From UHGV virus genome UHGV-0194711: 35,641 nucleotides of DNA; one strand, 5' to 3'. The notes under the pieces were generated by a model. That model was not told the DNA's origin and made no database searches. It saw only the letters and a list, made by a program, of their open reading frames with translations. The stretch is from a virus. Position numbers and translations under genes: made by a program. Each line of letters opens with the position of its first letter. Position 1 is the first letter of the stretch. This document shows positions 17,383 through 34,433 of this stretch, piece by piece.

Positions 17383-17799
17383 TTACTTGTTATTACAGGC
17401 GCCCTGGCCGGAGTAGCAGTTTTCACACATGCGCTCATCGGTACACTGCTCACTGAGCTTTTGTTTCAGCAGGTAACCTTCCAGCATCCAAATCTTGTTA
17501 ACCGCATTCTCGCGGGCAATCTTGCGACCGATCTCCGGGTCGAAGTTTTGCGGGCTGGCGCAGGCGCTTTCGCCCGTGACGGTGAAGCCGTTGTGCAGCA
17601 CCAGAACACAAATCGTCAGCAGGTTCAGCGCTGGGCTGCAATCGTCCATTGCCGACTTATCAGGCCAGCCCGCCTGAACCGCTTCGCCGACGTTGAGATA
17701 ATGGCACTCTTTGATAACGCTCTCGATATGATCAGGCGTAACGCGCGGCGCGGTTAAGCCTTTAGCCTGAATTTGCTGCTCGATATCTTTGTCGCTCAT
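17383..17799 (-). CDS. Hypothetical Cys-rich protein (moron inserted between scaffold and capsid genes)
   Basis: 138 aa; own conserved TIR (GAGGAAAGACCAATG) and own terminator; C-terminal CxxC...C cluster (CTDERMCENCYSGQGAC). Confidence 0.6.
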   Translation of the reverse strand: MSDKDIEQQIQAKGLTAPRVTPDHIESVIKECHYLNVGEAVQAGWPDKSAMDDCSPALNLLTICVLVLHNGFTVTGESACASPQNFDPEIGRKIARENAVNKIWMLEGYLLKQKLSEQCTDERMCENCYSGQGACNNK

Positions 17800-17832
17800 T
17801 GGTCTTTCCTCTGGTTAGGTTGTCGTGACATG

Positions 17833-18681
17833 TCACGCTACAGTTTGATCACCGTAACGCTTCTGGTAGTACGCGCGAACCCGGGCGGAAACGTTCTCAT
17901 GGTCGGCGTGTTTAGGATCCATGTAGGCCGGGGACTTCATCAGGTCACGGATTGATTGCTGTTCTTCGAGATTCACATCGCCGCCCGCCGGCGCATCCTC
18001 CTGCATTTCAGCGCCGATTTTCGCCAGCATGCGGATCACCATCGGGTTATTGCCGATTTCATCCATGCGCCCTTTGTCGCCGTCATCTGCCAGAGAGTTA
18101 AATGCCCGGAAAGCCAGACCGATGTTTTTATTAAACTCGGCGTCAGTTTTCCACGTCTCGCGCAGCTGCGTGGCGGCGGCTTCCGAATCCAGCGCCGCAG
18201 CACCGTTAACCAGTTCGGGGGCCAGCTGTGCATATTCGCCCAGGATGAAACCCATCTGATCGTTGGTGATGCCTTTGGCATGAGCCGATTTCATGAAGGA
18301 TTGCATGCGCGGGTCGGCTTTGAATTCGTCCCACTTAAAACCCTCGACCTCTACCTTTGGCGCATACTCATCAGCCGTTTTCGGCGGCGTGTCGCCGCTG
18401 CCCATGCGCTTTTCAAGGTGCGTGTAAGCATCCGCCAGTTTGCGGGCTGAGCCTTCAACGTTGAGTTTTCCGTCATCGCCCATAACGCGGTATTTTTCAG
18501 GTAGCCAGTCATCCGCGCCTTGTTCGCCCGCGCCGGTGCTGAGTAGCGAAGTACCAGCAGGAGTACCGCCGCCCGGATTTTGAGTACCATCGCTATTACC
18601 AGCATCATCCCCTCCTGCGTTACCCGCTGGCGCTTCTGCACCTGTTTCGGTGTTCATGAATAAGTGTTTAAACTTCCACAT
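17833..18681 (-). CDS. Capsid assembly (scaffolding) protein (T7 gp9-like)
   Basis: 282 aa, highly acidic, Gly/Ala-rich N-terminus, between portal and capsid genes. Confidence 0.65.
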   Translation of the reverse strand: MWKFKHLFMNTETGAEAPAGNAGGDDAGNSDGTQNPGGGTPAGTSLLSTGAGEQGADDWLPEKYRVMGDDGKLNVEGSARKLADAYTHLEKRMGSGDTPPKTADEYAPKVEVEGFKWDEFKADPRMQSFMKSAHAKGITNDQMGFILGEYAQLAPELVNGAAALDSEAAATQLRETWKTDAEFNKNIGLAFRAFNSLADDGDKGRMDEIGNNPMVIRMLAKIGAEMQEDAPAGGDVNLEEQQSIRDLMKSPAYMDPKHADHENVSARVRAYYQKRYGDQTVA

Positions 18682-18901
18682 CGTCGTTTACTCCGTCTGC
18701 TTTGTTGATTTGCATCAGAATGAAATCGAGCACGGAACGCTGTCCGGCCCGGTAACAGGTTTCCCGGTCGCCTTCGGTACCGCCTTTGACATACGCCTCA
18801 CGCCCGAAGCGGCGCGTTAATTCGTCCAGCACCTGCGGCCCGCCGGGCATCTCCTCGAAAATGCGCCGGTAGTCTTCAGGGGTTACGTCTTTTTTGATCA
18901 T
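18668..18901 (-). CDS. Hypothetical small protein between portal and scaffold genes
   Basis: 77 aa ORF with start overlapping the portal stop and end overlapping the scaffold start; protein-like composition. Confidence 0.4.
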   Translation of the reverse strand: MIKKDVTPEDYRRIFEEMPGGPQVLDELTRRFGREAYVKGGTEGDRETCYRAGQRSVLDFILMQINKADGVNDDVEV

Positions 18902-20523
18902 TGGTTGCCCGCCAGTCGTTGTCCCATAATTGCGCCTGCTGCCTGCCCTGCTGCGCCGGCGGCTTCCGTCCCGGCCTGCATCAGCAACTGCTGTTGCGCC
19001 TGCTGCTGTTGCATCTGCTGGCGCTGCTGTCGAAGTTGCTCGACCGCATCAGCGGAACGCATAACTTTTGCCGGAACGCCAAGAGCCTCGCCGACAACCT
19101 TGCTCGCCTCGTCGCTGTCCATGTTGTCCAGTACATCCGGGTACGCCTGCGCCAGCTGCATGATGTTCTGGCCGTATCGCTCGATGGCGGTCACATCTTC
19201 CAGCTTCTGCGCACGGGCCAGCGGGGAGATATAACGCACGTTGAAATTGGCGCTCTGGAGGCTCTCGGGAGCGGGAGGAAAAACGCCAGCGCGGAACGCA
19301 ATACCGAAGCAGCGCTCCACCAGCGGTTGCAGGTATTCAGCCTGGAATCGTCCATAGACCGGGCCAAGCAACTGGCGGATCAGCGCGACACGCACATGCA
19401 CTTCGGTAGCAGTCATTGCCGGGCCGTCCTGCGGTTGCAACTGATCGGCCATCATGATTTTGCGAATGGAAGCCTGCAGGCGCTGTTCAGCGGTAAACGC
19501 CACGTTGAAATCTGCGCCGGTGAGCAAAGGTTTCATGCTTTCGGTGCTGTTCGCCACGATGACGCGGCGCGGGCCAACTTTTACCGTTCGCGGGTTGAGC
19601 ACGCCGTCATCCTCAGCAATCCACATACCGGAGATAGCCAGATCCTGCGCGGCCTTCTCCATGCGTTTGGTTTCGTTCAGCTCTTTGCAGTCCGGCAGCG
19701 CGTCGTATACCGGGCCGATACCGTAGGAGCCGCCGGGAATTTTCATCCAGCGCGGGACGCACACAGGGAATTCGTGATAGCCGGATTCACGCACGATACG
19801 CTTGCCGTTCACTTCCACGTTGAACGATGCAAAACGCATATTGCGCGCCAGCTTCGCATTTACGGCGTAGGTATCACGCGGGAAAATGCAGTGCAGGAAA
19901 TCAAATTTATCGTCAGGTTTGTTTTTTGCAGCATCGCGGATTTTTTCGCTTACCTTGTCCGCGCCGAATTCTTTCACTGCCTGTTCAGCGGTGAGCTGAT
20001 AGCACCGATAAATCGTGTCCACGATGCCATCCCGGCGGGTGGAAGTCACAAAGCATTGCGCCAGCGGCCACTGCTGGAAGGTAAATCCTCCCTCTTCCTT
20101 GTCCTCATCGACGTACAGCGCGAACCAGCCAGCACAGACCACATCGAGATTGGCCTCGTACCCTTCCGCGTCAAAGTTAGCGGCGTGGATATTTTCCCAT
20201 ACCAGCGTTGCACAGGTGGACAACCACGCCTTAGCGTCATCAGGAAGTAATTCGCTGTCGAGGTTCAGCCATTGAGCATTCGCCGGGGTCATCCCTGACA
20301 TAAGCGCGGACGCCAGCATACGGGCGCTGTCGGTGGCTGTGCCGTCCAGCAGCTTCGCAACCTTGTGCTTTGCGCTCTGTGCGTCCAGCACCTCAGACGA
20401 AAACCCGGCCCCGCGCAGCGGATAGGTGTAGTCGTAGCATTCCCGCCAGACGCTTTCGTGCACCTGGCGATTTGCTTTCAGCGTGTCAGCGCGCCTGATT
20501 AACCGGCTGGCGAGTTGATCCAT
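18898..20523 (-). CDS. Portal (head-to-tail connector) protein, T7 gp8-like
   Basis: 541 aa (T7 gp8 is 536 aa); Gln-rich C-terminal tail (QQRQQMQQQQAQQQ) as in T7 portal; precedes scaffold and capsid. Confidence 0.8.
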   Translation of the reverse strand: MDQLASRLIRRADTLKANRQVHESVWRECYDYTYPLRGAGFSSEVLDAQSAKHKVAKLLDGTATDSARMLASALMSGMTPANAQWLNLDSELLPDDAKAWLSTCATLVWENIHAANFDAEGYEANLDVVCAGWFALYVDEDKEEGGFTFQQWPLAQCFVTSTRRDGIVDTIYRCYQLTAEQAVKEFGADKVSEKIRDAAKNKPDDKFDFLHCIFPRDTYAVNAKLARNMRFASFNVEVNGKRIVRESGYHEFPVCVPRWMKIPGGSYGIGPVYDALPDCKELNETKRMEKAAQDLAISGMWIAEDDGVLNPRTVKVGPRRVIVANSTESMKPLLTGADFNVAFTAEQRLQASIRKIMMADQLQPQDGPAMTATEVHVRVALIRQLLGPVYGRFQAEYLQPLVERCFGIAFRAGVFPPAPESLQSANFNVRYISPLARAQKLEDVTAIERYGQNIMQLAQAYPDVLDNMDSDEASKVVGEALGVPAKVMRSADAVEQLRQQRQQMQQQQAQQQLLMQAGTEAAGAAGQAAGAIMGQRLAGNQ

Positions 20524-20526
20524 GAA

Positions 20527-20748
20527 TTAAGCCCCTAACGTATTTTTTGCGGCCTGTGCGCCAGTGGACAGCAGGGAAGAACCTGTATCCGTTGCGCCTT
20601 CTGCGCCGCTGGCCAGCAGGGATGATCCCTGTTTGCGCTTTTTGCGCGCTGCTGCGTCAGCGTTCGCAGCTTTGGCCGCTGCGTCTGCTGCTGCGTCGGC
20701 TTCGGCCTGCGGGTCTGACTGAACAACTTTTGGTGCGCTACCACACAT
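20527..20748 (-). CDS. Hypothetical small Ala-rich protein upstream of portal (T7 gp7.3-position)
   Basis: 73 aa ORF, Ala/Asp-rich; position only. Confidence 0.4.
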   Translation of the reverse strand: MCGSAPKVVQSDPQAEADAAADAAAKAANADAAARKKRKQGSSLLASGAEGATDTGSSLLSTGAQAAKNTLGA

Positions 20749-20758
20749 AAAATTCTCC

Positions 20759-21208: not shown

Positions 21209-21226
21209 TCCTGTATTAGTGAGTCG

Positions 21227-21523: not shown

Positions 21524-21678
21524 AATTCAGCCCCCTAAACGCGCGCGTGCGCGAGCATAGAGAAGGGCAAAATCGCCGCCCGCCAGAATGGAAAAGGAGC
21601 CTGAACAGAATTTCATGCTTTCCGCACGTGCTGGCCAACCGCATTTTTTAGCGTTATCTGCTGCTCTTAGAGACGGAA

Positions 21679-22080
21679 TTAAATTCTGCATAGACGTAAT
21701 TCCTTTATCTCGTTAGTGACCTGTTCGAGCAATTCAGTCTCCGTGCCGTAGTTTTCTTCCCATGTTTTTTGCCCTGCGTGGATAGCTACGCCGTGTCCGC
21801 CGGTTCTGTGGTGTGGCGGGCAAAGCGGGAGAGTTTCTTTGTGGTCGGCGCGCTGGGCTATGCCCTGACCGGTTCGGATGTGATGGATTTCGGGGGCGGA
21901 GTACACGCCGAAGTGTACTTTGCAGACAATACAACCTATCTCAACGAGATCTTGGAAATATTGCTTATCTGATTTACTGGCGCGCTTTTTCACAAAGCAC
22001 CCCCTTGCTGGCTGCAAACTCCCCGTAATACAAATCTTCTGCTTTCCGGCGGGCATTGATAGCATCGGCAATTTCATCAA
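21679..22080 (-). CDS. Ref-like / HNH-motif nuclease (recombination enhancement function family), start uncertain
   Basis: CIVCKVHFGVYSAPEIHHIRTGQGIAQRADHKETLPLCPPHHRTGGHGVAIHAG His/Cys metal-finger pattern. The 5' end overlaps the AP2-HNH gene by ~100 nt if the first ATG is used; GTG at 21993 with GGGGG RBS is an alternative. Confidence 0.5.
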   Translation of the reverse strand: MMKLPMLSMPAGKQKICITGSLQPARGCFVKKRASKSDKQYFQDLVEIGCIVCKVHFGVYSAPEIHHIRTGQGIAQRADHKETLPLCPPHHRTGGHGVAIHAGQKTWEENYGTETELLEQVTNEIKELRLCRI

Positions 22081-22450
22081 AGCGGCCTAAACTAACGGTC
22101 CTGCCATCAACTGAAATTTGCGCCGCCCATTTTAGGCGAGTGGATACCCAGTAAATTCCCGGAATTCCTGAGCTATTGTCACTCCTCAAGCCCACATTTT
22201 TGGTATTGTCGGCCTGTGTGCAGATCCTCAGATTTGAGCGGGTGCAGTTGAGCTTATTACCATCAATGTGATCTACAACATCATGAGGCCCCGCATTCAT
22301 GATGACGCGATGAAGGTATCTTTCCTTGCCAAAATGCCAGCCGGTGACTTTTGCATAACCATTCGAGCCGATGTGGATGGGGTAACCCACAAAGATCAAG
22401 GCGTCGGCCTCATCCATCTCGACGATATGAGAGCGAATATTGAATTTCAT
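21974..22450 (-). CDS. HNH homing endonuclease with AP2 DNA-binding domain
   Basis: Start taken at MKFNIRS (GAGG RBS). HIDGNKLNCTRSNLRICTQADN HNH motif followed by an AP2-like segment (GIPGIYWVSTRLKWAAQISVDGRTVSLGRFDEIADAINARRKAEDLYYGEF). Confidence 0.75.
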   Translation of the reverse strand: MKFNIRSHIVEMDEADALIFVGYPIHIGSNGYAKVTGWHFGKERYLHRVIMNAGPHDVVDHIDGNKLNCTRSNLRICTQADNTKNVGLRSDNSSGIPGIYWVSTRLKWAAQISVDGRTVSLGRFDEIADAINARRKAEDLYYGEFAASKGVLCEKARQ

Positions 22451-22460
22451 AGTGTCCGCC

Positions 22461-23057
22461 TCAGGCCGCATAACTGAAAAGCTGAGAGGCTGCGTTTTCT
22501 GCTGCCTGCTGATTAGGGAAGGTGCGGAATAAAATAAAATTCCAGAGGACGTCTAATACGGATTTGTACAGCTGGGAAAATTCTACATCGTCCATTTTTG
22601 CGAACGATATGGATTTGGGTTCCTTGCGGGTGGTGCCATCAGGCATCTGGTATTCGGTATAAAAACCGGCCTCGATAGTTACCCAGGAACGGAAAGCTTC
22701 AAACGATTTAACCGCGCTGATATTGCCGGCGCGTTTTTCTGCCTCATCGCGCAGATACTGATCCGCCAGTTCCTGCAATGTGTCGCCATGCCCGGCATAG
22801 TGGGCCACCAGCTGCACGTAACCCCGAACCAGTTTTTTATCGGCTGGCGATATTGCACCGCCGGAAGGTTGCCAGTAATCAAATCCCAGATTCAGGAGGG
22901 CAAAAAATTTACGGTGAAATGCCGAGTTCCTTGCCTGTTTAAAATCCGCATACAGAATACCGCCCATGCGGACTTTTTTTTCTAAGAATTCGCGGGCGTC
23001 AGGCGTTGCCGGAATTAATACACCGCCGGGTGCTTTTACAAAAGAATACTGCGCCAT
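22461..23057 (-). CDS. DUF1367-family phage protein
   Basis: N-terminus MAQYSFVKAPGGVLIPATPDAREFL typical of DUF1367 proteins in enterobacterial lambdoid prophages (recalled, not searched). Confidence 0.5.
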   Translation of the reverse strand: MAQYSFVKAPGGVLIPATPDAREFLEKKVRMGGILYADFKQARNSAFHRKFFALLNLGFDYWQPSGGAISPADKKLVRGYVQLVAHYAGHGDTLQELADQYLRDEAEKRAGNISAVKSFEAFRSWVTIEAGFYTEYQMPDGTTRKEPKSISFAKMDDVEFSQLYKSVLDVLWNFILFRTFPNQQAAENAASQLFSYAA

Positions 23058-23125
23058 TGGGTTCCCCTTTAGCGCAGCAATTGTTCAGAATTACATGGTG
23101 TTGGGTGTTCAGGCCAACGGGGTAA

Positions 23126-23317
23126 TTATAGCATATTGCCGTCTGGTTTGATAATGGTATAACCCGTCAATTTAGCTAATTCAAACAACGCGTTAAGTGT
23201 CGCTACGTGCTCATCGGAATGGACAATTCTGGTCTTCTTAATCTTCCCATTTTCACACGTTATCAGTACATCACCATCGTCGGGGAGAAGGTCTCCTGCG
23301 TCTTTCTTATCAACCAC
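23126..23317 (-). CDS. Small protein downstream of a LexA box (candidate SOS-controlled antirepressor); start uncertain
   Basis: Track ORF is 23126-23386, but its first 23 codons run through the LexA box and promoter. In-frame GTG at 23317 preceded by GAGGGAGAGG gives a 63-aa product. Confidence 0.4.
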   Translation of the reverse strand: MVDKKDAGDLLPDDGDVLITCENGKIKKTRIVHSDEHVATLNALFELAKLTGYTIIKPDGNML

Positions 23318-23337
23318 TACCTCTCCCTCAACAACAA

Positions 23338-23357
23338 TACTGTATAAAATTACAGTA
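23338..23357. promoter_or_regulatory. LexA (SOS) box: TACTGTATAAAATTACAGTA
   Basis: CTG-N10-CAG with AT-rich spacer, 18/20 match to the E. coli consensus taCTGTatatatataCAGta; lies just downstream of a candidate -10 (TATATA) on the minus strand. Confidence 0.7.
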
Positions 23358-23445
23358 TATATACTACCAACTGACAGTGAGCGCAAATTTTTAAGAGCAC
23401 GAATCGTTAAAAATCAACAATAAATCTCAAAATATCCGATTGAAT

Positions 23446-23480
23446 TCAAAAGAAAACCGCCATTTCTGACGGTTCTGTTT
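23446..23480 (-). terminator. Candidate rho-independent terminator ending the early-right operon
   Basis: Transcribed strand CCGTCA-GAAA-TGGCGG hairpin (one G-U pair) followed by TTTTCTTTTG, just after the 112-aa gene. Confidence 0.4.
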
Positions 23481-23499
23481 TAACTGGTATGGTTGTTCG

Positions 23500-23838
23500 C
23501 TATGCTGACAGTTTGGTTTCGTGCCACCCTCGCGTTACCCAGCATTGCGAATCACCAGCACACGGGCAGGAGGTGATCGGCAGCGTCTCACCGCATTTTC
23601 TACACAGACGTTTGCTGATCGATTTGATGTGGCCACTAAGCCGCGCATCATCCTGACGGATCAGCATAGCGATGTACTCGGCCAGTTCGTACGGTTCACG
23701 CCCCGGACGCCGGGCGGCGCAGTTATGCGCCAGCATGTCCAGTTCCTGCGTATCGAGAACCAGCTCAATTTTGCGGTTGCCGGCGGCAGATTGCCGCGCC
23801 CTCTGCGCGGCTTTACGTTCTGCGGATGATTTAGCCAT
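23500..23838 (-). CDS. Hypothetical protein with C-terminal Cys cluster (possible zinc-finger regulator)
   Basis: 112 aa; CRKCGETLPITSCPCAGDSQC cluster; last gene of the early-right operon. Confidence 0.5.
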   Translation of the reverse strand: MAKSSAERKAAQRARQSAAGNRKIELVLDTQELDMLAHNCAARRPGREPYELAEYIAMLIRQDDARLSGHIKSISKRLCRKCGETLPITSCPCAGDSQCWVTRGWHETKLSA

Positions 23839-23850
23839 TAACCACCTCAG

Positions 23851-24468
23851 TTAGCTGGATAATCGTTTAATTGCATGGCGGAGCATAACTTGTGCATACA
23901 GCGCCGGAGCAAGAACCTGCGGCATTTTTGAGTAGCCCGCCCCAGAGAACAGGCGGCGTATTTCTTTAGGTGCCGCGCGTAGATTATTGATATTGTTGTT
24001 ATTCAAATCATTATCCAGATGGATAACCGAATAACCAGACGGTAATTTTCCATGTACGCATTCATATACGTATACATCGAGTCTAATTTTCTCTTTATTA
24101 ACAGTGATGTACTGTGGAAGAATGCGTTTCCGGCCTTTAGGTTCGCGTGTCCATCCGCGAGCTATCTTTACATCCTTGATATTGTCAGGTTTTTTATCGG
24201 TACCGAATCTCCTGTTGAACCTTTCTGTAAGTTCAGCATTCGTTAGATTCCTATTGGCATAAATGAAAGTCAGCTGCTCATCGGAATAGCGCGGCTCAAT
24301 TAAAAACTGCTTTCCTAACCCATGAGATTTGCACCAGATACGAATAGCGCCCACGCTCTTATTTGTACCAAATTTAGCGTTAAACATTTCAGTTAATTCC
24401 CGCGCAGTGGAGCTTTTAATATGCTGCTTGATAAACAACTCCTGGGCTGGAGTGTATTTCTCTATCAT
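23851..24468 (-). CDS. HNH homing endonuclease (AT-rich insertion)
   Basis: YECVHGKLPSGYSVIHLDNDLNNNNINNL HNH motif; N-terminal basic DNA-binding-like repeats; markedly AT-rich gene. Confidence 0.7.
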   Translation of the reverse strand: MIEKYTPAQELFIKQHIKSSTARELTEMFNAKFGTNKSVGAIRIWCKSHGLGKQFLIEPRYSDEQLTFIYANRNLTNAELTERFNRRFGTDKKPDNIKDVKIARGWTREPKGRKRILPQYITVNKEKIRLDVYVYECVHGKLPSGYSVIHLDNDLNNNNINNLRAAPKEIRRLFSGAGYSKMPQVLAPALYAQVMLRHAIKRLSS

Positions 24469-24695
24469 TTTTCGATCCCCATAATCTTAGGTACATTGCC
24501 TGCGGTACCGTCATAAATAGCCTTCTGGGCGTCGAGCGCAACTCGATAAGTACCGACCATCACCCCGACGATTTCCACTACCGCTTTAGCCCTCGATAAC
24601 TCTTCCTGAAGCAGGTCGCCTTTGATATTGGGATCGGTGACGGTTTCCAGCATGGCGAACTGGTGATTCATTAAATCCTGAATAGTGTTTTTCAT
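24465..24695 (-). CDS. Hypothetical small protein
   Basis: 76 aa ORF with overlapping stop/start to both neighbours. Confidence 0.45.
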   Translation of the reverse strand: MKNTIQDLMNHQFAMLETVTDPNIKGDLLQEELSRAKAVVEIVGVMVGTYRVALDAQKAIYDGTAGNVPKIMGIEK

Positions 24696-24697
24696 GG

Positions 24698-25288
24698 TTA
24701 GGCTACCTCCCCGATATATTCTGCAATGCCCGGCAGCAGCGCCACCGCTGGCGACTCACACTGATTGCCCCACACGTCGAAACCATGCGACGACTGGCGG
24801 GCGAATAACTCAATACGCGGCACATCGCCCAGCAGCTGCACCAGCTTTTCGCGCACGATATCCGGTTTGCGCGAATGCTCCAGACGCGGGGCCGTGAATG
24901 ACTGAACGATCCCTGCATCCATCCGGGCGGGTAATTTCCCCTGCACAGCGAAAAGGCAATCCTCGCTGTTCGCCCTGGTCAAATGGCCCATTCCAAGGGC
25001 CAGTTTGTCGGTCTGCCGGCTGTAGCATTTGTTCCACGTAAAGCCTTTCATGGTCATCAGACGGAAGCCCCACGCCTCGACTACTCGCAACGCCTCCAGC
25101 GGCTGAGTCGGTACCCACCACATAGCCAGCAGGCAGTTTTCAGCGGCCAGTTCCCAGACCGGGAGACGGCAGATATCGAGCACAGTCATGGTCTGGTATT
25201 TGTGCCCGGCGCCGCGTTCCCCGTCTTTGGCTTTGTCGCGGTAAGTCCATGGAGGATCCGCATAAATCAGGGTGTATTTGTTATTCAC
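24698..25288 (-). CDS. MT-A70-family DNA N6-adenine methyltransferase (orphan, no cognate restriction gene seen)
   Basis: IYADPPW catalytic motif near the N-terminus; 196 aa. Confidence 0.8.
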   Translation of the reverse strand: MNNKYTLIYADPPWTYRDKAKDGERGAGHKYQTMTVLDICRLPVWELAAENCLLAMWWVPTQPLEALRVVEAWGFRLMTMKGFTWNKCYSRQTDKLALGMGHLTRANSEDCLFAVQGKLPARMDAGIVQSFTAPRLEHSRKPDIVREKLVQLLGDVPRIELFARQSSHGFDVWGNQCESPAVALLPGIAEYIGEVA

Positions 25289-25455
25289 GCAAGCACCCCA
25301 CTACTGCGGAGACATTCCAGCGCCCACTGTGCAACCTCACATCCAGCCCATATCAGAGCGATAATGACTATCCAGCCAACAACGTTTGCACTGAGTACGA
25401 ACAGCATCAGCGTCCTGCGGCTGCAATGCATAAAATCAGGTGTTGAAAATTTCAT
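25285..25455 (-). CDS. Small membrane protein
   Basis: Start taken at MKFSTPDFMH; single TM helix (LMLFVLSANVVGWIVIIALIWAG); 56 aa. Track ORF 25285-25632 is extended upstream in a frame that overlaps the next gene. Confidence 0.4.
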   Translation of the reverse strand: MKFSTPDFMHCSRRTLMLFVLSANVVGWIVIIALIWAGCEVAQWALECLRSSGVLA

Positions 25456-25685
25456 GTCCGCTTCTCCCGCCAAAAATTTAATCGTTCTTTGAAAAACTCC
25501 CGGTAGCTTTCCGGCGTCGCTGCAATCTGCTCTACGATGGCCTGTCGAGTAACTTTTTTCTCGAACAGCTGGCGTATGAGTGCCGCGGCCCGCATGTCGT
25601 AGTGCTCTTTGATCTGGCACTCCTGCGGCCATTTGGCGCGATTAAGCGGTAAGCCGGGCGGCAAGTAATCTGATTGCCCGGCCAT
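25452..25685 (-). CDS. Hypothetical protein
   Basis: 77 aa ORF in the operon frame; no motif recognised. Confidence 0.45.
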   Translation of the reverse strand: MAGQSDYLPPGLPLNRAKWPQECQIKEHYDMRAAALIRQLFEKKVTRQAIVEQIAATPESYREFFKERLNFWREKRT

Positions 25686-25688
25686 GCC

Positions 25689-26357: not shown

Positions 26358-26395
26358 TGGTCTTTCCTCAGTTAAATCGCGCTGGTCAGGCGCGG

Positions 26396-27784
26396 TTAAA
26401 ATGCATCGGTATTGAATTTCTCTGAGTATTTACGGGGTTGTTTCCGGGGTTTCGCGGCCTCCAGTTGGATACGTGTTTTCTCTTTGCCAACATGCTGATC
26501 CATTGACAGAAAGTGTCCGTTTTTAAATTCCTGATAAATAATTGCGCCTGCGGCGCTGAAGCGGCTTTTACCCAGGATAATTTCAGCGACGCCAGCCGCC
26601 GGGCTTTCCGGGTTGTAAACCTCATCGCGGTACAGAAACATGATGCTGTCGGCGTCCTGCTCAATGGAACCGGAATCGCGCAGGTCTGACATGACCGGGC
26701 GGCGCTGGGCCGCCGGGCGGGAATCCACGGCGCGGGAAAGCTGGCTAAGCGCGAACGTCGGCGTATGCAGGCGCATAGCCATAGTTTTTAAGTTTCGGGA
26801 TATGTGGGCGATCGCGAGGTCGTTACGCTCTGCCTTCGGTTTTTTAATCAGGCCAAGGTAATCGACAACGATCATCGCCAGATGCGGATACCGGCGCTTA
26901 TGCGTTTCGGCAACGGCGCGGATTTGCTCAATCGTCAGATCGGTAGCATCAACGATCCAGATATCGCGCCCGTTCATGGTCTCCATGGCCGCTGTAAAGC
27001 GCGCCCAGTCCTCGTCCTGCATATCGAGGGGATTACGCAGGCGTGACACTGACATGTTGCCAGAACCCGCTAGAGCGCGTTCTACGATTTGCGCAGCGGC
27101 CATTTCCATGCTGAATATCAACGCGCCACCGCCAGCAGCGGTAACACCATCGACAATCTTCAGCGCAAATTCTGTTTTTCCCATGCCCGGACGCCCAGCG
27201 ACGACAATCAAATCCTGCAGGTTGATTCCGCCGGTCGCATCGTCAAGTTCCTCGATCCCGGTTTTCAGGTTGCGAGTACCCTCTTCGCCGTCCATGCGCT
27301 TCTGCATGGTTTCCATGTACACCGGCAATAATTCGCTCATGTGTACCGGCTGCACGTCGCCAGTGTCGCCGGTCATGTCCAGCAGCTGCGCCACGGCAGT
27401 TTCGACAATCTCATCGCGCTGCTCCTGATTATTCGCCTGGCGGATACCATCAGCACCATTTTGCAGTAATTCAGCCATACGGCGGCTGCGCCACGCCTTC
27501 ACCATTTTCCCGGCGTAACCTTTCAGGTTTGGTACCGTGGCGGGCATACGCGAAATCTCTGATAAATCAGCCAGGCTACTCCCTCCCAGAGCCTCACTGA
27601 CAAACAGCATATCGATCAGACCGTTCGTCAACGCCTGTTTTTTGATTTCCGAGAAGGCGCGACGATGAAAAACAATGCTGAATGATTCTTCAGGCGTCGA
27701 TGCGATCACGTCGAAAGCGTCCGGACTTGCTCCACCGTTCAGCAGTCCAGCCAGTACACAAGATTCCAGTTCCTGCGGAGTCAT
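26396..27784 (-). CDS. DnaB-type replicative helicase (P22 gp12-like)
   Basis: GRPGMGKTEFALKIV Walker A; Walker B-like MIVVDYLGL; 462 aa; follows replication initiator with overlapping stop/start. Confidence 0.85.
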   Translation of the reverse strand: MTPQELESCVLAGLLNGGASPDAFDVIASTPEESFSIVFHRRAFSEIKKQALTNGLIDMLFVSEALGGSSLADLSEISRMPATVPNLKGYAGKMVKAWRSRRMAELLQNGADGIRQANNQEQRDEIVETAVAQLLDMTGDTGDVQPVHMSELLPVYMETMQKRMDGEEGTRNLKTGIEELDDATGGINLQDLIVVAGRPGMGKTEFALKIVDGVTAAGGGALIFSMEMAAAQIVERALAGSGNMSVSRLRNPLDMQDEDWARFTAAMETMNGRDIWIVDATDLTIEQIRAVAETHKRRYPHLAMIVVDYLGLIKKPKAERNDLAIAHISRNLKTMAMRLHTPTFALSQLSRAVDSRPAAQRRPVMSDLRDSGSIEQDADSIMFLYRDEVYNPESPAAGVAEIILGKSRFSAAGAIIYQEFKNGHFLSMDQHVGKEKTRIQLEAAKPRKQPRKYSEKFNTDAF

Positions 27785-28773: not shown

Positions 28774-28775
28774 AC

Positions 28776-28997
28776 TCAGATCCCCAGCGAGTCAGCCAGC
28801 TGACGGCAGGCGATTTCGTATTCTTTCTGGGTAAGTCCCGCTTCCTGCAGGTCTGCCTTGCGCAGTTCGTAGCGTTCCCAGATTGTCAGCGCAGTAGCGC
28901 GACGTTCCTCGAAAATCGATTCGATATCTTCCATCGGGACTTGTACCCCGTTCCGGCGAAACCCGTTCCGCCAGGTGATGCGGTCTTGTGTTCTCAT
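28776..28997 (-). CDS. Hypothetical small protein
   Basis: 73 aa; conserved TIR GAGGAAAGACCAATG at start. Confidence 0.45.
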   Translation of the reverse strand: MRTQDRITWRNGFRRNGVQVPMEDIESIFEERRATALTIWERYELRKADLQEAGLTQKEYEIACRQLADSLGI

Positions 28998-29017
28998 TGG
29001 TCTTTCCTCGGTACAGG

Positions 29018-29464
29018 TTAAACGCTGGTCAGGCGCTGTGTTTCTCGCATAGCTTGCAATGCTCTGGCGACTTGCTGCGGCCCGTCTCTGGCGTCGAGTA
29101 ATAACGCGATAATCGCCGCGGCAAACTCACGAATGGCCACACAAATTAAATACTGGGTGGACATACCCAAGCGCGCGTAACGTTCTGCCGGCAGCGCCGC
29201 TTCCATCGCTTTGACCAGCGCCAGAGTTTTGGCTCTCGCGGCTTTGGTCTCGCCTCGCAACCAACGAAAAATTTGTTGGCGGTTGTTGTTGATTGCCCGC
29301 CAGTCGGCGTTTCCATCTGCATCTTCGATCTGGTGCAGCTTCAGCGAACCGGTATTACCACCAAGACGAAACCACATGCGGCTTATCTCGATAGCAACCA
29401 GCTCCTGCCCGCTTTCCGCTGCCCAGTTAAAGATCTCTCGTTTAAGTTCTTCGAGGTATTCCAC
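29018..29464 (-). CDS. YdaT-like regulatory protein (Rac prophage CII-analogue family)
   Basis: Resembles E. coli Rac YdaT by memory (conserved ...QQIFRWLRGETK... block); sits directly after the Cro-like gene as in Rac. Confidence 0.5.
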   Translation of the reverse strand: MEYLEELKREIFNWAAESGQELVAIEISRMWFRLGGNTGSLKLHQIEDADGNADWRAINNNRQQIFRWLRGETKAARAKTLALVKAMEAALPAERYARLGMSTQYLICVAIREFAAAIIALLLDARDGPQQVARALQAMRETQRLTSV

Positions 29465-30206: not shown

Positions 30207-30212
30207 ATTAAA

Positions 30213-30242: not shown

Positions 30243-30255
30243 ACACCTCTAATAT

Positions 30256-30290
30256 TAACTTTTGTTAGTAAAAAACATTGCCAATAAAAA
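30256..30290 (+). promoter_or_regulatory. Candidate early-left promoter with operator-like site
   Basis: TAACttttGTTAG (operator half-sites as in 29735-29750) overlapping -35 TTGTTA (30262-30267), 17 bp spacer, -10 TAAAAA (30285-30290). Confidence 0.4.
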
Positions 30291-30457
30291 TACCTTTGGT
30301 TATGCTTCACCACATCAAAGACGCACTAACCACGCGGCAGTTGTTCAGAAACAGTTCTGACAGTCCGGAAAGACGGGCGCGAATTCTTCGGGTCGCCGAC
30401 AGTACGATGACATGCGGGAAAGACCGCAACGAATACGAATTGCTGTGTGTAGTCTTG

Positions 30458-30482
30458 GCCCGGGCGCCCCGGGCATTTTTTT
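30458..30482 (+). terminator. Strong rho-independent terminator inside the early-left leader
   Basis: GCCCGGG-cgc-CCCGGGC perfect GC stem followed by ATTTTTTT. Confidence 0.7.
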
Positions 30483-30706
30483 AAAGCATTCACGCAGTAA
30501 CGAGGAAAGACCAATGGGGCTGACCACCCTGACAGCCGGGAAAGACCGGCAACCTTCAGGCGTAAAAAAGCCCACCGAAGTGGGCTAATTTACCCGGGAC
30601 AGTGACCAAACCGCCCAGAATGCTACAGGGGACCAACCCTGTAGCGAGGAAAGACCAACGACAGAGCCGCTGATCGGCTCTGAGTATATATCATCAAGGA
30701 GTCGCT

Positions 30707-31030
30707 ATGGAAGCGCTTACCATCCCCGTAACTATTTACGTTATGGCCACAACCAAACCATATCTACCAACGTCTTATCACTCATTCACCTGTGACATGT
30801 CACAGCAATACCCTGATCTGTATGTCCTCGTTACTACCAAAACGGTAGAGGTTGCCATTCCAGCTTTAGAGCCAATCGACATTATTGGTATGCAGGTTAA
30901 TGCCCTTCGTGCGAAGAAAGAGAAAATCTCTGCCGAAGCAAAGAAGGAGCTGGGTGTTATTGAAGACCAGATTCAGCAGCTGCTGTGCATCGATCACTCT
31001 CCAATTGAAGAAAGCGACGTACCGTTTTAA
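30707..31030 (+). CDS. Hypothetical protein (first gene of early-left operon)
   Basis: 107 aa; AAGGAG RBS before ATG. Confidence 0.5.
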   Translation: MEALTIPVTIYVMATTKPYLPTSYHSFTCDMSQQYPDLYVLVTTKTVEVAIPALEPIDIIGMQVNALRAKKEKISAEAKKELGVIEDQIQQLLCIDHSPIEESDVPF

Positions 31031-31074
31031 TTAACCGGCGCGTGACCTGCGCCAGTAACCAAGAGGAAAGACCA

Positions 31075-33225
31075 ATGACCATCTACAACGGCTCATTTGA
31101 GCCAAAGAAATCGGCGATTAAAGACTGCGGCGCCGTGCAGCTGGCGATCGCCATCGATGCGCCAAACAAAAAAGTGGCCGAAAGCATTATGACCGGCAAA
31201 CTCTGGGAATCATACCCGGCCAATGGTGACAACTATTTCAAACCGAAACTGTGGGAACACGTTGAAGGCCAGCCGCTGCCGACCGTTGGCCAGTTCGATG
31301 AGTCATTCGCCCAGCAGCATACTTTTGACGGTGAAAAATGGGTTTCTACTGCGCAGGATAGCGCTTCCGGAAGTGGTGCAGGTTTACCAGCCGACGATGA
31401 AGTGATCGACCTGATGACCGTTTCCCCTGATGAACGCTTTGCTGCCGTCCTGCTTTTTAGCACCGCGGCGATTGATGGCCATCTTTATTCTCAGGTTGTG
31501 GATTATCTGGATAATCTGAAAAACCACGATGGGGAATTTGAAGAGGAAGATCGCTTTAACTTTAATGTTCTGTGCGCCCTGCAAAATAACTTCCCGGTTC
31601 AAAGCATGCATGTGGAAGGTCTGAACAATCTTATTCAGGGTATTTTCTCCCACTTTGAAAACCAGACGCCGGGCAAAGCGGCTATCTCTCAGTTCGTTAA
31701 ACGCTGGCTTGAGAATCCGGGCAAGCGCGACGAACTGGCCCCCGGCGTATATAAAAATACCGCTCTCAGCACCAGCACCGATGATAAAACACCCGTGGTA
31801 ATTTCTAAGCGCGGGTATAAACACACTTATGCAACGCTGGATCAGGAGATCGCTACCGCCCTTCTCCCGCTGGCGCCTGATGCGCCGGTACTATCCGGAA
31901 ACCTTCTGGACGCTAAGAAGATGATTTCCGATGACCGGGAAGATTTTAAACGCTGGTCAGCATCGCTGCACACCACGCCGCAGATACTCAAATACGACCG
32001 TGCCAGCATCTTCGGCGTGGTACAAAACGTACCGGCGAAAGATACCTACCATTTCCCTGACAGCCTGCGCCGCCATATCGATTCATGGCTGGCGGCCAAC
32101 GGTCGCTTTGAGGAAACCGAGACAGGATCCGTTAAACAACCAGAGGCGACGCAAAATACCGCCTCAAACGTGGGCGAAAAAGTGGAAGCGCAGCAGCCGG
32201 TTGTAACCGACACTCAGGCCAAACAGGCGCGTGAGACGCTCAATGATATGGGTTATGGCGTATATGCCTCTGGTGAAGGTGCAGAGCCGGAAGAGAAGTT
32301 AAGCGTTAAGGCTGAAAAACTGGCTGATGATTCCGAGCGTTTAGCAAAACAAATCGCTCACGCTGAAAGCCTGCCTAACGCTGAGGATGTTGTGCAGGCT
32401 GTCGGAAAACCAATTATCGGGGAAGACAATTTAGACCTCTGGAAACGCGTATTTAAAACCGACGAAAGGTTTACTAAGGCTTTCACACAGAACGGCGGTG
32501 GCACCTCGATCAACGGTACCTACATGACCATGCTTGCCACACGTGAGTTTGGCCCTAAGGGCATCGGCTGGGGCGTGGATATTGTTGAAGAGCGTTTCGA
32601 TATTGGCGCGCCGATCACTCGGCAGGTAAAAGGCAAAGACAACAACGCATCGTGGGAGCTGGTTCTTGATGGGAATGGTAATACCGTCAACGAACAGCAC
32701 CATGTTGTGACTGTCCGGCTCTGGTACATCCTGAACGGAGTACGAGGTGAGGAAACAGCATACGGCTGTACACCCTACATTTACGGTAGTAAATACGGGA
32801 TCACCTGCGACGGCGAAGCAGCCAAAAAATCACTGACAGATGCGACCAAAAAAGCGTTATCCGGCCTCGGATTCAGTGGCGATATCTTTATGGGGCTTTA
32901 CGACAATCTGGAGTACCGCCAGAAGAACAAGGCCGAGTTTGACCTGAAGAACGCCAGCGAATCAGCCGAAGATGCAGCACGGCTCCGCCAGGAGTTTGAC
33001 GATAAATTAAGCCGCGTTGCTAATACCCTGGCGCATGGCGTGACGGTGAACGAAATCAACGGTGTGTTTTCCCCTATCGCACGTGAGATCGATGTTCACA
33101 TTAAAGCCGCCCAGGCCAACGGCGACACGCAGCATGAACGTTATCTGTCTGGCCGGCTCCGCCGACTCATCTCCATCAAAGATGGGCGCATTAAAGAACT
33201 GAATAAAGCCGAGGAGAAAGCATAA
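31075..33225 (+). CDS. Large early protein with C-terminal Erf-like single-strand annealing (SSAP) domain and ~450 aa N-terminal region of unknown function
   Basis: Start at MTIYNG with conserved TIR. C-terminal segment ...YGCTPYIYGSKYGITCDGEAAKKSLTDATKKALSGLGFSGDIF resembles the Erf signature (SYARKYCLNGLFGID) by eye. Confidence 0.4.
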   Translation: MTIYNGSFEPKKSAIKDCGAVQLAIAIDAPNKKVAESIMTGKLWESYPANGDNYFKPKLWEHVEGQPLPTVGQFDESFAQQHTFDGEKWVSTAQDSASGSGAGLPADDEVIDLMTVSPDERFAAVLLFSTAAIDGHLYSQVVDYLDNLKNHDGEFEEEDRFNFNVLCALQNNFPVQSMHVEGLNNLIQGIFSHFENQTPGKAAISQFVKRWLENPGKRDELAPGVYKNTALSTSTDDKTPVVISKRGYKHTYATLDQEIATALLPLAPDAPVLSGNLLDAKKMISDDREDFKRWSASLHTTPQILKYDRASIFGVVQNVPAKDTYHFPDSLRRHIDSWLAANGRFEETETGSVKQPEATQNTASNVGEKVEAQQPVVTDTQAKQARETLNDMGYGVYASGEGAEPEEKLSVKAEKLADDSERLAKQIAHAESLPNAEDVVQAVGKPIIGEDNLDLWKRVFKTDERFTKAFTQNGGGTSINGTYMTMLATREFGPKGIGWGVDIVEERFDIGAPITRQVKGKDNNASWELVLDGNGNTVNEQHHVVTVRLWYILNGVRGEETAYGCTPYIYGSKYGITCDGEAAKKSLTDATKKALSGLGFSGDIFMGLYDNLEYRQKNKAEFDLKNASESAEDAARLRQEFDDKLSRVANTLAHGVTVNEINGVFSPIAREIDVHIKAAQANGDTQHERYLSGRLRRLISIKDGRIKELNKAEEKA

Positions 33226-33791: not shown

Positions 33792-33792
33792 T

Positions 33793-33978
33793 ATGCTGAA
33801 ACTCACACTGAAACGAGGCGACGCGCTTCACGTCGTTTTTCCGGACGGTACTAACGGGATAATCGAAGCCTGCGCGCGTTGTGAACTGGCTATGCATTTT
33901 CCGCGCAGTGCCAAAATCACCCGCGAAAATGGCGCGTTCCGGAATAAACCAAACCTGATTAAGCCTAATCAGAAATAA
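33793..33978 (+). CDS. Hypothetical small protein
   Basis: 61 aa from ATG at 33793, immediately after the upstream stop (TGAtATG). Confidence 0.4.
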   Translation: MLKLTLKRGDALHVVFPDGTNGIIEACARCELAMHFPRSAKITRENGAFRNKPNLIKPNQK

Positions 33979-34187
33979 CTCGCAACTGTCGTTAGCATTG
34001 TGATCTACCTATGAACCGGAGATCACAATGCTACGTTGGCAACCAGGCACACTTTTACTTTCAGATTTCGATATCAAAATTGGCAGGCTATCAGCCAGCG
34101 TTAGAAAGAGGACTCTGACCCAGTCCGATATCCAACGCGCTTGCGATACGGCAGACAACGCGATAGCCGGCATGCTGAGGAAAGACC

Positions 34188-34433
34188 ATGAGACACGATC
34201 ACGACATCATCACCAGAGAGGAAATGATCGAACTGACGGGGACCCCACTTAAATCGAGGCAGTGTGAAGCGCTACGTCGGGCCGGTGTCTTTTTCATGGA
34301 AAGGGCAGACGGCCATCCTAAAACGACGTGGGGCCATTTCCTGAACCCGATTAAATACCGCAACCAGCAGGAAGAGACGGTGCGGGAGGAAGAACCAGAC
34401 TTCGGAGCTATCTTTAATGGCCGGAAAACGTAA
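34188..34433 (+). CDS. DUF4224-family protein (excisionase-like, upstream of integrase)
   Basis: ITREEMIELTGTPLKSRQCEALRRAGVFF matches the DUF4224 pattern typically found next to integrases; TIR GAGGAAAGACCATG variant. Confidence 0.55.
   Translation: MRHDHDIITREEMIELTGTPLKSRQCEALRRAGVFFMERADGHPKTTWGHFLNPIKYRNQQEETVREEEPDFGAIFNGRKT

Follow-up and report, generated by a model that had tools for sequence, protein, structure and literature searches.

The C4 RNA of phages P1 and P7 and the CI RNA of P4 are antisense immunity RNAs, which are complementary to short sequences repeated at or close to the ribosome-binding sites or leaders of their genes and rely on loop recognition. In phage T4, RegA and RegB are examples of one factor addressing many early-gene start regions that carry a short common sequence. 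The closest analogue of the block described here, as judged by its arrangement, is the SAS/ESAS of the Cluster K mycobacteriophages, though as an analogue and not as a fellow member. These repeats were described in 2011 (PMC3203893), and as of a 2025 survey there was no explanation of the function of SAS (PMC12699233). Pope et al. also reported one SAS copy in the opposite orientation in each K1 phage, away from the gene starts (PMC3203893). Another relevant system is IsrB of Salmonella Gifsy-1 and Gifsy-2 (Rfam RF01386; Padalon-Brauch et al. 2008), the reference used here, which is an RNA of 88/94 nt, mapped by Northern blot and primer extension, and antisense in the Gifsy pL operon (PMC2330248).

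The window, that is, the whole stretch of 35,641 nucleotides analysed here (UHGV virus genome UHGV-0194711), contains a repeated block whose core is the 11-mer GAGGAAAGACC, found in seven copies against about 0.03 expected by chance. According to the original prediction, the 15-mer GAGGAAAGACCAATG is reused at gene starts. This is confirmed, as there are five exact copies (0.03 expected), and all the copies then named lie at the starts of their ORFs, on the coding strand. The 15-mer is not the conserved unit, however; that is the 11-mer, and its distance to the start codon varies between 0 and 9 nt in relatives. The list of sites also holds, but a copy with one mismatch had been missed. The copies are as follows:

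17801-17811 (15-mer 17797-17811), minus strand: block at the start of the gp49/Sf6-gp66-family gene 17383-17799
26359-26369 (15-mer 26355-26369), minus strand: block at the start of the gene for a 222-aa basic protein, 25689-26357
28999-29009 (15-mer 28995-29009), minus strand: block at the start of the gene for a 73-aa protein, 28776-28997
30502-30512 (15-mer 30502-30516), plus strand: leader copy 1, heading a mini-ORF of 24 codons that has no conserved counterpart in relatives
30646-30656 (one-mismatch 15-mer 30646-30660, ending AACG), plus strand: leader copy 2, without a start codon, read as the template of a predicted sRNA seed
31063-31073 (15-mer 31063-31077), plus strand: block at the start of the gene for a 716-aa RecE/ExoVIII-like exonuclease, 31075-33225
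34177-34187 (11-mer core), plus strand: block directly 5' of the ATG of the DUF4224 gene, 34188-34433

The gene at 31075 had been taken for an SSAP gene; PHROG assigns it instead to the RecE/ExoVIII-like exonucleases. The block at 34177 is located within the coding end of an upstream ORF (34028-34252, ..LRKD..), and the DUF4224 gene that follows adjoins the integrase gene.

Conservation was assessed in 78 relatives, which were picked via protein homology and not via the motif. They hold 463 exact copies of the 11-mer, with 300 at ORF starts, 158 in the pL leader and 5 elsewhere; none of the 463 is internal or antisense to a gene. The expected enrichment at gene boundaries was thus found, and the motif does not occur at equal frequency away from starts. 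Exact copies outnumber those with one mismatch by 463 to 45 in 853 kb of relatives and, unlike the near-fixed 11-mer, the 107-aa protein encoded beside the leader falls to 48% identity. The family carrying the 11-mer consists of Enterobacterales prophages, with hosts ranging from Serratia to Escherichia. Since seven positions outside GAGG are invariant in the block, the constraint far exceeds what a Shine-Dalgarno sequence needs. Around one third of all copies belong to the leader, where no conserved ORF follows. The copies hold the same positions from one genome to the next. Those of one genome have the motif and a loop in common while their flanks differ, and hence they have not been recently homogenised.

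In many respects SAS and the block are alike. Both are short asymmetric motifs with a Shine-Dalgarno core, repeated many times per genome, a few bases 5' of the starts of mostly non-structural genes of different families and in one orientation. In both, a subset has an inverted repeat just upstream, and in both there are conserved positions with no role in rRNA pairing. The SAS copy of opposite orientation in the K1 phages may parallel the copy that would serve as sRNA template here. The sequences themselves are distinct: SAS is defined by the consensus GGGATAGGAGCCC with at most two mismatches in Cluster K actinobacteriophages, from which the Enterobacterales block GAGGAAAGACC departs, and SAS has 11-19 copies per genome against 7 for the block. 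The ESAS repeats span 17 bp without RNA-pairing covariation, and a DNA-binding protein is favoured for them, whereas the stems described below covary. Also unlike SAS, a concrete RNA partner can be predicted for the block. The C4 and CI RNAs are processed from the sense transcript that bears their targets and concern one operon, while here an antisense promoter of its own and three transcription units would be involved. RegA and RegB differ in being proteins, with different targets that are conserved far less strictly than the block.

Upstream of three of the seven block copies there is a small hairpin, class I, with a GCGC-type stem and a CUGACCA loop:

26378-26394, minus strand: CGCGC-CUGACCA-GCGCG, 1 nt past the DnaB stop codon and 8 nt 5' of the block
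29021-29037, minus strand: AGCGC-CUGACCA-GCGUU, with a G·U pair on the sense strand, overlapping the last codons of the YdaT-like gene 29018-29464
31037-31053, plus strand: GGCGC-GUGACCU-GCGCC, after the stop codon of the 107-aa gene

The first two correspond to what had been called extended junction homology. The additional shared sequence is indeed present (GCGCCTGACCAGCG, then TTTAAC), and at the 28995 site it does overlap the end of the preceding gene (..QRLTSV, stop). It is better described, though, as a covarying hairpin, of which 31037-31053 is a third instance. Each arm measures 4-6 bp, and the changes in the stems covary at the RNA level. At the putative target sites 17797 and 34177 the hairpin is absent; a palindrome, CGTGACATGTCACG, is found at 17824-17837, by the gp49-like gene.

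The two remaining copies of the block belong to the leader of the rightward early operon, where elements were recognised on both strands:

30278-30306, plus strand: pL-like promoter (TTGCCA, 17 nt, TATGCT), from which the leader and the rightward early operon would be transcribed
30383-30484, plus strand: RprA-like sRNA with an intrinsic terminator
30516-30550, plus strand: leader hairpins GGGG-CUGACCA-CCC and GCCGG-GAAAGA-CCGGC, each displaying bases that could pair with the predicted sRNA
30563-30677, minus strand: predicted IsrB-like antisense sRNA of about 115 nt, called from its hairpins, -10 box, terminator and isrB match
30683-30688, minus strand: -10 box TATACT, 8 nt from the Shine-Dalgarno sequence of the 107-aa gene
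30622-30645, minus strand: hairpin B', loop UUGGUC
30593-30619, minus strand: hairpin A', loop UUUGGUCAC
30569-30586, minus strand: terminator hairpin, followed by a U run at 30563-30568

The RprA-like sRNA includes a hairpin, GCGG-GAAAGA-CCGC (30414-30427), which carries GGAAAGACC, i.e. 9 of the 11 block bases. GACC is met in three different structural contexts. The 5' tail of the predicted antisense sRNA carries CGUUGGUCUUUCCUC, the complement of 30646-30660.

The strand on which hairpins A and B, adjoining leader copy 2, are maintained can be read from their base pairs, for they fold well on the minus strand only. There, hairpin A has 62 G·U pairs and hairpin B 10, with four mismatches each. 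On the plus strand, hairpin A has 2 G·U pairs and 64 mismatches, and hairpin B has 1 and 13, respectively; the 72 minus-strand G·U pairs become A·C mismatches. In hairpin B, compensatory double changes affect eight of the nine pairs, a result matched by none of 500 shuffles. All 81 leader variants examined have TATACT or TATAAT at a distance of 26-49 nt on the upstream side of the seed, and all 25 non-redundant variants aligned have the terminator hairpin with its T run. Folding of the minus strand is under selection, and the -10 box and terminator on that strand are conserved. The predicted promoter has a poor -35, and a canonical extended -10 is seen in just 9 of the 81 variants. In the same 25 non-redundant variants, GGTCTTTCC of leader copy 2 is invariant, even in those whose GAGG has degenerated into TAGG or TCGG. 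Of 65 block-bearing loci, 51 have a single sRNA gene per genome, the others looking like truncated pieces that end before the leader. We infer that the minus-strand RNA is transcribed and that it includes the seed.

A relationship with IsrB is suggested from both directions, the model matches being reciprocal. The Rfam isrB model matches 30565-30649 on the minus strand with 28.7 bits (E 0.003 in a 501-nt search), a score below the Rfam gathering score of 35, which none of 12 relatives reaches either. Conversely, a covariance model of the phage leader sRNA family has its best Gifsy-2 match at the IsrB locus (E 0.002). Like IsrB, the predicted sRNA is antisense within the pL operon, near a RecE-like exonuclease gene; one of its hairpins has the loop UUUGGUC, its Rho-independent terminator reads GCCCAC-UUCG-GUGGGC, and its -10 box is 8 nt from the Shine-Dalgarno sequence of the downstream sense gene. 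It differs in its greater length, the extra hairpin B' and the 5' tail with the anti-block sequence. No GAGGAAAGACC block occurs in Gifsy-2, nor does the genome that encodes IsrB offer it a trans site of at least 11 nt. In the alignment, the mapped IsrB start comes downstream of the seed position. The seed is thus peculiar to the present phage family.

On this basis, our leading reading, held tentatively and at somewhat short of an even chance, is that the block combines a Shine-Dalgarno sequence with the seed-match site of a phage-encoded antisense sRNA. GAGG would be the Shine-Dalgarno part, and the invariant remainder, GGAAAGACC(AA), the site matched by the seed. The sRNA would be made from the minus strand opposite the pL leader, from about 30677 to 30563, and would belong to the IsrB lineage. 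Its tail, CGUUGGUCUUUCCUC, could form 13-17 nt of pairing that takes in block and start codon at five or more dispersed genes, covering their ribosome-binding sites and so repressing the translation of all five jointly. Seed complementarity extends over 11-17 nt at five start regions (those of the 73-aa, 222-aa, RecE-like exonuclease, DUF4224 and gp49-like genes), where 7 nt would suffice for the seed of a trans-acting antisense sRNA, and the net binding predicted by cofolding is -15 to -24 kcal/mol at these block-bearing starts against -0.8 to -6.9 at 12 others. Antisense RNA systems typically rely on YUNR loops for recognition (PMC4485353). The CUGACCA loop, a U-turn of YUNR type, stands upstream of three targets and could pair by complementarity with the UGGUC loops in the sRNA hairpins, which may allow a fast initial kissing contact; the geometry would suit this, with the target hairpin 5' of the block and the sRNA hairpins 3' of the seed. 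The sense leader, including the RprA-like RNA, has extra copies, either of the block or of GGAAAGACC placed in hairpin loops; they would act as cis targets, or as decoys absorbing the sRNA once pL fires. The hairpins at 30516-30550 are candidates for either role.

The translational control site suggested earlier thus gains in substance: the copies are always on the mRNA strand, exact copies greatly outnumber near ones, and the exact complement is found in the predicted sRNA gene. That complementarity would be automatic, however, if leader copy 2 were merely a paralogue of the start sites transcribed in antisense. Since the block is the same in every lineage, and no alternative version was found among the relatives, seed and target do not show the co-variation that would prove pairing. 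Such uniformity would also be compatible with a conserved factor of the host.

An extension of the sRNA reading, which we regard as doubtful, makes the RNA regulon a second switch beside CI/Cro. In the lysogen, the sRNA would silence at least five genes for recombination, excision-associated and other functions through the frozen ribosome-binding block and the kissing loops. When pL is derepressed, four to six decoy sites in the leader and the RprA-like sRNA, with its GGAAAGACC loop, would titrate the sRNA and so sharpen induction. With the block present throughout the family, the sRNA of a resident prophage would also strike incoming heteroimmune relatives. Similar reasoning could account for the SAS motifs of mycobacteriophages.

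Alternatively, the block could be a protein operator: a phage or host RNA-binding protein, acting as T4 RegA or CsrA do on their own targets, would read GGAAAGACC together with the GACCA loops at the start sites; the many-copy leader would then be a sponge or loading platform, and the antisense RNA unrelated or active in cis only. Invariance from Serratia to Escherichia is what a conserved partner would lead one to expect. The presentation of GGAAAGACC in pre-folded CCGG-GAAAGA-CCGG hairpins of the sense leader, with compensatory stem changes, and the recurrence of GACC in its three contexts point the same way. Nevertheless, no RegA, RegB, CsrA, Hfq or N-like protein was found by Pfam and PHROG among about 25 early proteins, the 107-aa protein beside the leader is acidic, and the minus-strand selection of hairpins A and B is left without a reason. 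We therefore consider such an operator unlikely.

It is likewise improbable that no trans factor is involved at all and that the block is simply an efficient ribosome-binding region, with hairpins that stabilise or process intercistronic RNA and an identity kept by recombination between mosaic phages. The proposal that the repeat is a module-boundary linker falls here and is weakly supported. In the 30 bp around the copies, BLAST breakpoints between relatives show about five-fold enrichment, but gene boundaries without the block have clusters just as large. Some relatives have an extra gene between two copies, its junctions falling at the 11-mer, and the RecE-like exonuclease of the phage could exploit short homologies; still, 11 bp of identity is very short for recombination, and the flanks differ between copies of one genome. 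The junctions would fit a block that is portable as a start region, or one at which crossovers occur as a by-product; they do not establish a function in recombination. Nor does this account need the seven invariant positions past GAGG or the third of copies in a leader without a conserved ORF.

A still less probable view confines the antisense RNA to the pL leader in cis, by transcriptional interference or leader pairing as with OOP, the start copies being read by something else or by nothing. The minus-strand evidence does bear on the existence of the RNA alone, and Gifsy IsrB manages without trans sites in its own genome, yet the invariance of the seed match at five distant genes and the loop-loop complementarity would go unexplained. 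A role for the hairpins as nut/boxB-like sites, recognised by an N-type antiterminator, is very improbable: GCGC-CUGACCA-GCGC does resemble P22 boxB, GCGCUGACAAAGCGC (PMC11480772), and some relatives have CCCUC-GAAAA-GAGGG hairpins in the leader, but no N-like arginine-rich protein was found (the one alternative-frame candidate, at 30900, is interrupted by stop codons in relatives), no boxA was seen, and the sites number at least five, each linked to a start codon, instead of one per operon as in lambda, P22 and phi21.

Start-associated phage repeats have stayed unexplained since 2011, and this Enterobacterales prophage family supplies a testable candidate partner, a predicted antisense sRNA with a seed complementary to the block. 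The arrangement suggests that one phage RNA switches off a set of phage genes together. If this is true, a temperate phage co-regulates genes in three transcription units post-transcriptionally via one RNA, and the IsrB lineage of prophage sRNAs gains a function. It would further show how a cis-antisense RNA can acquire a trans regulon by duplication of its target site. For engineering, the block would offer a compact, portable module that joins a ribosome-binding site to an sRNA handle. The neighbouring RprA-like RNA, for its part, suggests that these prophages reach into the RpoS control of the host.

The 15-mer GAGGAAAGACCAATG, which the original prediction had placed at a series of gene starts, is a real repeated start-site block. 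Five exact copies are present in the window (17797-, 26355-, 28995-, 30502+ and 31063+), where 0.03 are expected by chance, and a scan of the window gave one more at 30646+, with a single mismatch and the ending AACG. The 11-nt core of the block, GAGGAAAGACC, of which GAGG is the SD part, occurs a seventh time at 34177+, with an ATG directly after it. Every copy lies on the coding strand, and five of them stand immediately 5' of the following genes:

17383-17799, gp49/Sf6-gp66-family gene
gene of a 222-aa basic protein of unknown function
gene of a 73-aa protein
gene of a 716-aa protein, by PHROG a RecE/ExoVIII-like exonuclease instead of the SSAP it had been labelled
DUF4224 gene, headed by the copy at 34177+ and adjoining the integrase gene

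The window is a lambdoid-type prophage, in which the early genes are arranged thus:

minus strand, P22-Cro-like gene, YdaT-like gene, O-like gene and DnaB gene
plus strand, CI-like repressor, pL leader and exonuclease-to-integrase operon, beside a tRNA fragment

The copies at 30502 (copy 1) and 30646 (copy 2) lie in the pL leader, upstream of a 107-aa gene.

When IMG/VR was scanned with the 15-mer, many single matches were obtained, presumably by chance, along with about 50 loci of two to seven copies each, all from one phage family. Through a pattern scan of one genome per species, the element was found in prophages of Serratia, Citrobacter, Enterobacter, Raoultella, Shimwellia, Rosenbergiella and Escherichia whittamii. 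E. coli rarely has it: 21 of 5426 genomes match the region in part. Across the related loci, the invariant unit is the 11-mer, and its spacing to the start varies (ATG, AATG, AACATG, AAGTG and others). To avoid a motif-based choice, 78 loci were picked via the neighbouring 107-aa protein, down to 48% identity. Their 853 kb hold 463 exact 11-mers versus 45 one-mismatch copies. Of the exact copies, 300 are followed within 9 nt by an ORF of 50 codons or more, 158 are in the pL leader and five are unclassified, while none of the 463 in these loci falls within a gene or antisense to one. Thus, the simple compositional bias which the original prediction had set against itself is refuted.

The seven positions after GAGG are constrained beyond the needs of an SD. 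All relatives with a 107-aa protein of at least 48% identity carry GAGGAAAGACC, and no lineage was found among them with an alternative block co-varying among its copies. The rare variants (..GACT, ..AGTCC, TAGG.. and TCGG..) are single-copy, and the other copies of the same genome are unchanged. A conserved host factor would account equally well for such universal invariance. Pairing of the block beyond GAGG, with the 3' end of 16S rRNA or with other rRNA segments, was set aside, as the known complementary segments are within rRNA helices. In a full-text literature search, no description of the 11-mer was found, the only matches being unrelated eukaryotic and viral primers.

The extended homology that had been noted at two of the boundaries belongs to a hairpin. 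Three copies in the window have this class I stem-loop 8-11 nt upstream, with a GC stem of 4-6 bp and the seven-base loop CUGACCA (GUGACCU at 31042). Both the loop and the core GCGC stem persist in the relatives, where changes of the outer pairs are compensatory (A-U, C-G, G-C, U-A, CACGC/GCGUG), with G·U pairs favouring the sense strand, 9 versus 3. The loop opens with a YUNR motif, a U-turn that is typical of antisense RNA recognition loops (PMC4485353). A class II hairpin is confined to the leader, where it abuts the 11-mer with a variable stem of 5-9 bp and a six-base GACCAA loop. Its stem is 92% paired, with double compensatory changes at eight of nine pairs, and its covariation score of 0.59, as against 0.20 in shuffles, was reached by 0 of 500 of them. 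It was also observed that the unrelated DnaB and 107-aa genes both stop just before a class I hairpin and end in ..F*, the DNA being TTTTAA(C)C or TTTTGA (26395-26400, 31025-31036 and many related loci). The conserved stretch thus extends back across the stop codon.

Copy 2 is without a start codon in the window and without a conserved ORF in the relatives, and its region reads better as a minus-strand element in terms of terminator, -10 hexamer, folding and isrB match. On the strand opposite the copy, GGTCTTTCC is invariant in 25 of 25 non-redundant variants, even those with a decayed SD part (TAGG or TCGG). A good intrinsic terminator (AGCCCAC-TTCG-GTGGGCT, then T6) lies at 30586-30569 on the minus strand; as scored from alignments, its T run is kept in all aligned variants, whereas the plus-strand tail is often not U-rich. 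Each of the 81 unique leader variants has a minus-strand -10 hexamer, TATACT or TATAAT, which precedes the block complement by 26-49 nt. Of the two leader hairpins beside copy 2, hairpin A in its minus-strand form (A') combines 155 Watson-Crick and 62 G·U pairs with 4 mismatches; read on the plus strand, it has 64 mismatches and 2 G·U pairs. For hairpin B, the counts are 10 G·U pairs with 4 mismatches on the minus strand (B'), as compared with 1 and 13 on the plus strand. This G·U asymmetry, 72 versus 3, is far beyond any mutational strand bias, and both hairpins fold properly only on the minus strand. On the basis of the terminator, the -10 hexamer, the strand-specific folding and the likeness to IsrB, a minus-strand RNA of about 115 nt is predicted, running roughly from 30677 to 30563. 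The -35 of its predicted promoter is poor, and a canonical extended -10 is found in just 9 of the 81 variants. There is one predicted sRNA gene per genome in 51 of 65 block-bearing loci, and the others look like truncated pieces short of the leader. At 30663-30681 (+), the start predicted for the antisense RNA falls within a perfect palindrome, AGAGCCG-CTGAT-CGGCTCT. The palindrome changes symmetrically in relatives (GAGCUG..CAGCUC), one variant having a U·G pair on the plus strand, and could be either a hairpin of the sense mRNA or an operator for a DNA-binding protein controlling the antisense promoter.

IsrB is an experimentally mapped sRNA of 88/94 nt in Gifsy-1 and Gifsy-2, antisense and located between STM1010 and the exonuclease gene sbcA (PMC2330248). 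In a local search, the Rfam isrB model matches 30565-30649 on the minus strand with 28.7 bits (gathering score 35, E 0.003), and its threshold is reached by none of 12 relatives. The parts common to the window RNA and isrB are the UUUGGUC-loop hairpin and the GCCCAC-UUCG-GUGGGC terminator. With a covariance model made from the block-bearing family, the best match in Gifsy-2 is the IsrB locus (E 0.002). The mapped IsrB start is 6 nt after TAGAAT, and 8 nt separate this hexamer from the SD of the sense gene downstream; TATACT in the window (30688-30683) stands equally far from the 107-aa gene's SD. Unlike the predicted RNA, genuine IsrB begins downstream of the aligned seed position. The block is absent from Gifsy-2, and only chance 9-10-mers were found there as trans targets of IsrB.

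The best-supported mechanism, which we hold tentatively and at a little below an even chance, is that the block is a seed match for the predicted sRNA at selected ribosome-binding sites. The 5' tail of this RNA contains CGUUGGUCUUUCCUC, the complement of the block, and the complementarity with flanks included amounts to 13-17 nt across the SD and AUG of five block-bearing genes. Net cofold energies, which include the unfolding cost of both partners, are -15 to -24 kcal/mol for these five starts; twelve further start regions of this phage give -0.8 to -6.9 kcal/mol. GACCA in the class I loops finds its complement in both predicted sRNA loops, UUGGUC and UUUGGUCAC. Antiparallel two-point binding is compatible with how the elements are ordered, as the target hairpin lies 5' of the block and the sRNA hairpins lie 3' of the seed. 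It is proposed that the seed would pair with the block at the five genes, covering SD and AUG, and that the sRNA loops would contact the class I loops as a second binding point. The non-SD part of the block would then be frozen because it is the seed match, the YUNR hairpin would be kept because of loop pairing, and a block copy would persist in the gene-less leader because it is the template of the sRNA. Leader copy 1, a CUGACCA-loop hairpin of the sense leader and the loop-presented GGAAAGACC could act as cis targets or decoys.

The sense leader carries, along with copy 1, a GGG-CUGACCA-CCC hairpin. GGAAAGACC, with 9 of the 11 block bases, is shown in the loops of two hairpins:

30414-30427, plus strand, GCGG-GAAAGA-CCGC hairpin inside an RprA-like RNA
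30535-30550, plus strand, GCCGG-GAAAGA-CCGGC hairpin in the sense leader

A related UCCG-GAAAGA-CGGG is seen near 30365. The stems of the GGG-CUGACCA-CCC hairpin by copy 1 and of the GAAAGA hairpins vary compensatorily in relatives, and the GAAAGA hairpins may serve as decoys for any factor that binds the block. The RprA-like RNA is a full-length match to the RprA sRNA (RF00034) at 30383-30484 (+), with 43.3 bits in a local search (gathering 70, E 0.0004). Its 3' half, ACGAAUUGCUGUGUGUAGUCUU, is identical to RprA and is followed by a terminator. It follows closely on the pL-like promoter and is flanked by the CI-like gene and block copy 1. The ttgctgtgtgtagtctt-plus-terminator motif is kept in many relatives, and others have boxB-like GAAAA hairpins instead. 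A possible role for this RNA is that of a prophage-borne RprA mimic which acts on host rpoS control; no description of a prophage RprA-like RNA or RprA homologue was found in a full-text search.

There is some support for a purely cis role, in which the block serves as an efficient RBS with stabiliser hairpins or as a recombination linker. Near block copies, breakpoints between relatives show a 5-fold enrichment, and a gene inserted in some relatives is bounded by two copies. However, breakpoints are equally frequent at gene boundaries without the block, the flanks are not common to the copies within one genome, and one third of all copies have no gene. The original prediction of a module-boundary linker and/or shared translational control site is borne out in part: control at ribosome-binding sites is favoured in the form of the putative sRNA seed match, and the recombination linker retains some support only. 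The extra gene (MDIKKLLERI..) in L030, L048, L174 and other related loci lies between the 107-aa and exonuclease genes. It sits between two complete hairpin-plus-block elements, and on either side of it the similarity to genomes lacking the insert ends at the 11-mer. In other relatives, this place is taken by another inserted gene, whose junction is an ordinary stop/SD overlap and which has no block. It is possible, too, that a RegA- or CsrA-like protein binds the block as its operator; nevertheless, no candidate was found among the roughly 25 early proteins, the class I loops are without GGA, the CsrA motif, and the selection on the minus strand would be left unaccounted for. The class I hairpin resembles the boxB of P22 (PMC11480772), but a nut/boxB reading of the hairpins is disfavoured, as boxA is absent and the sites are too many, each being tied to a start codon. 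The search for an N-like ARM protein gave none, and relatives have an interrupted form of the Arg-rich ORF that lies in an alternative frame at 30900. Leader-peptide attenuation via the 24-codon mini-ORF at 30514 was likewise rejected, its start codon being missing in many relatives with the nucleotides conserved.

The closest described phenomenon is SAS/ESAS of the Cluster K mycobacteriophages. SAS spans 13 bp, contains an SD and stands at 11-19 gene starts, about half of its copies being preceded by an inverted repeat; its authors left undecided whether it is bound by a host- or phage-encoded RNA or protein (PMC3203893). Its function was still without a test in 2025 (PMC12699233). In Cluster K1 phages, one SAS copy is in reverse orientation. 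The present block differs in sequence, host and hairpin behaviour, and is an analogue of SAS/ESAS, not a member. P1 C4 and P4 CI are phage antisense control RNAs. In contrast to them, the proposed RNA would have an antisense promoter of its own, and its targets would be spread over three transcription units; the proposed seed pairing would be a variant of phage antisense control.

In a blastn search of the phage collection, the leader matched only BUCT708 and BUCT709 (OM816834/OM816835, L001), which are also the only sequenced phages with a similar early region (~86% identity). Their structural module is unlike that of the window. They are labelled Stenotrophomonas phages, a host label that looks doubtful because all genomic relatives are in Enterobacterales. 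Two related prophages have above-threshold matches to sRNA-Xcc1 (RF02221; 66-68 bits) beyond their integrase end, on its downstream side (L020 12230-12318 and L025 10882-10970), with none in the window. At the window edge, a truncated tRNA gene with a long variable arm (35567-35641, -) adjoins the tyrosine integrase gene (34417-35433, +), and this is probably the prophage attachment site. An MT-A70-family adenine methyltransferase gene is present at 24698-25288 (-); UGACC, AGACC and GGACC in the loops and block fit DRACH, the pattern of the eukaryotic MT-A70 enzyme METTL3, which is probably a coincidence. A nin-like region extends over 21679-25685 (-), with the following genes:

23851-24468 and 21974-22471, minus strand, two HNH endonuclease genes
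21679-22080, minus strand, Ref-like RecA-dependent nuclease gene
minus strand, DUF1367 gene
25452-25685, minus strand, DNA polymerase III theta (HOT-like) homologue
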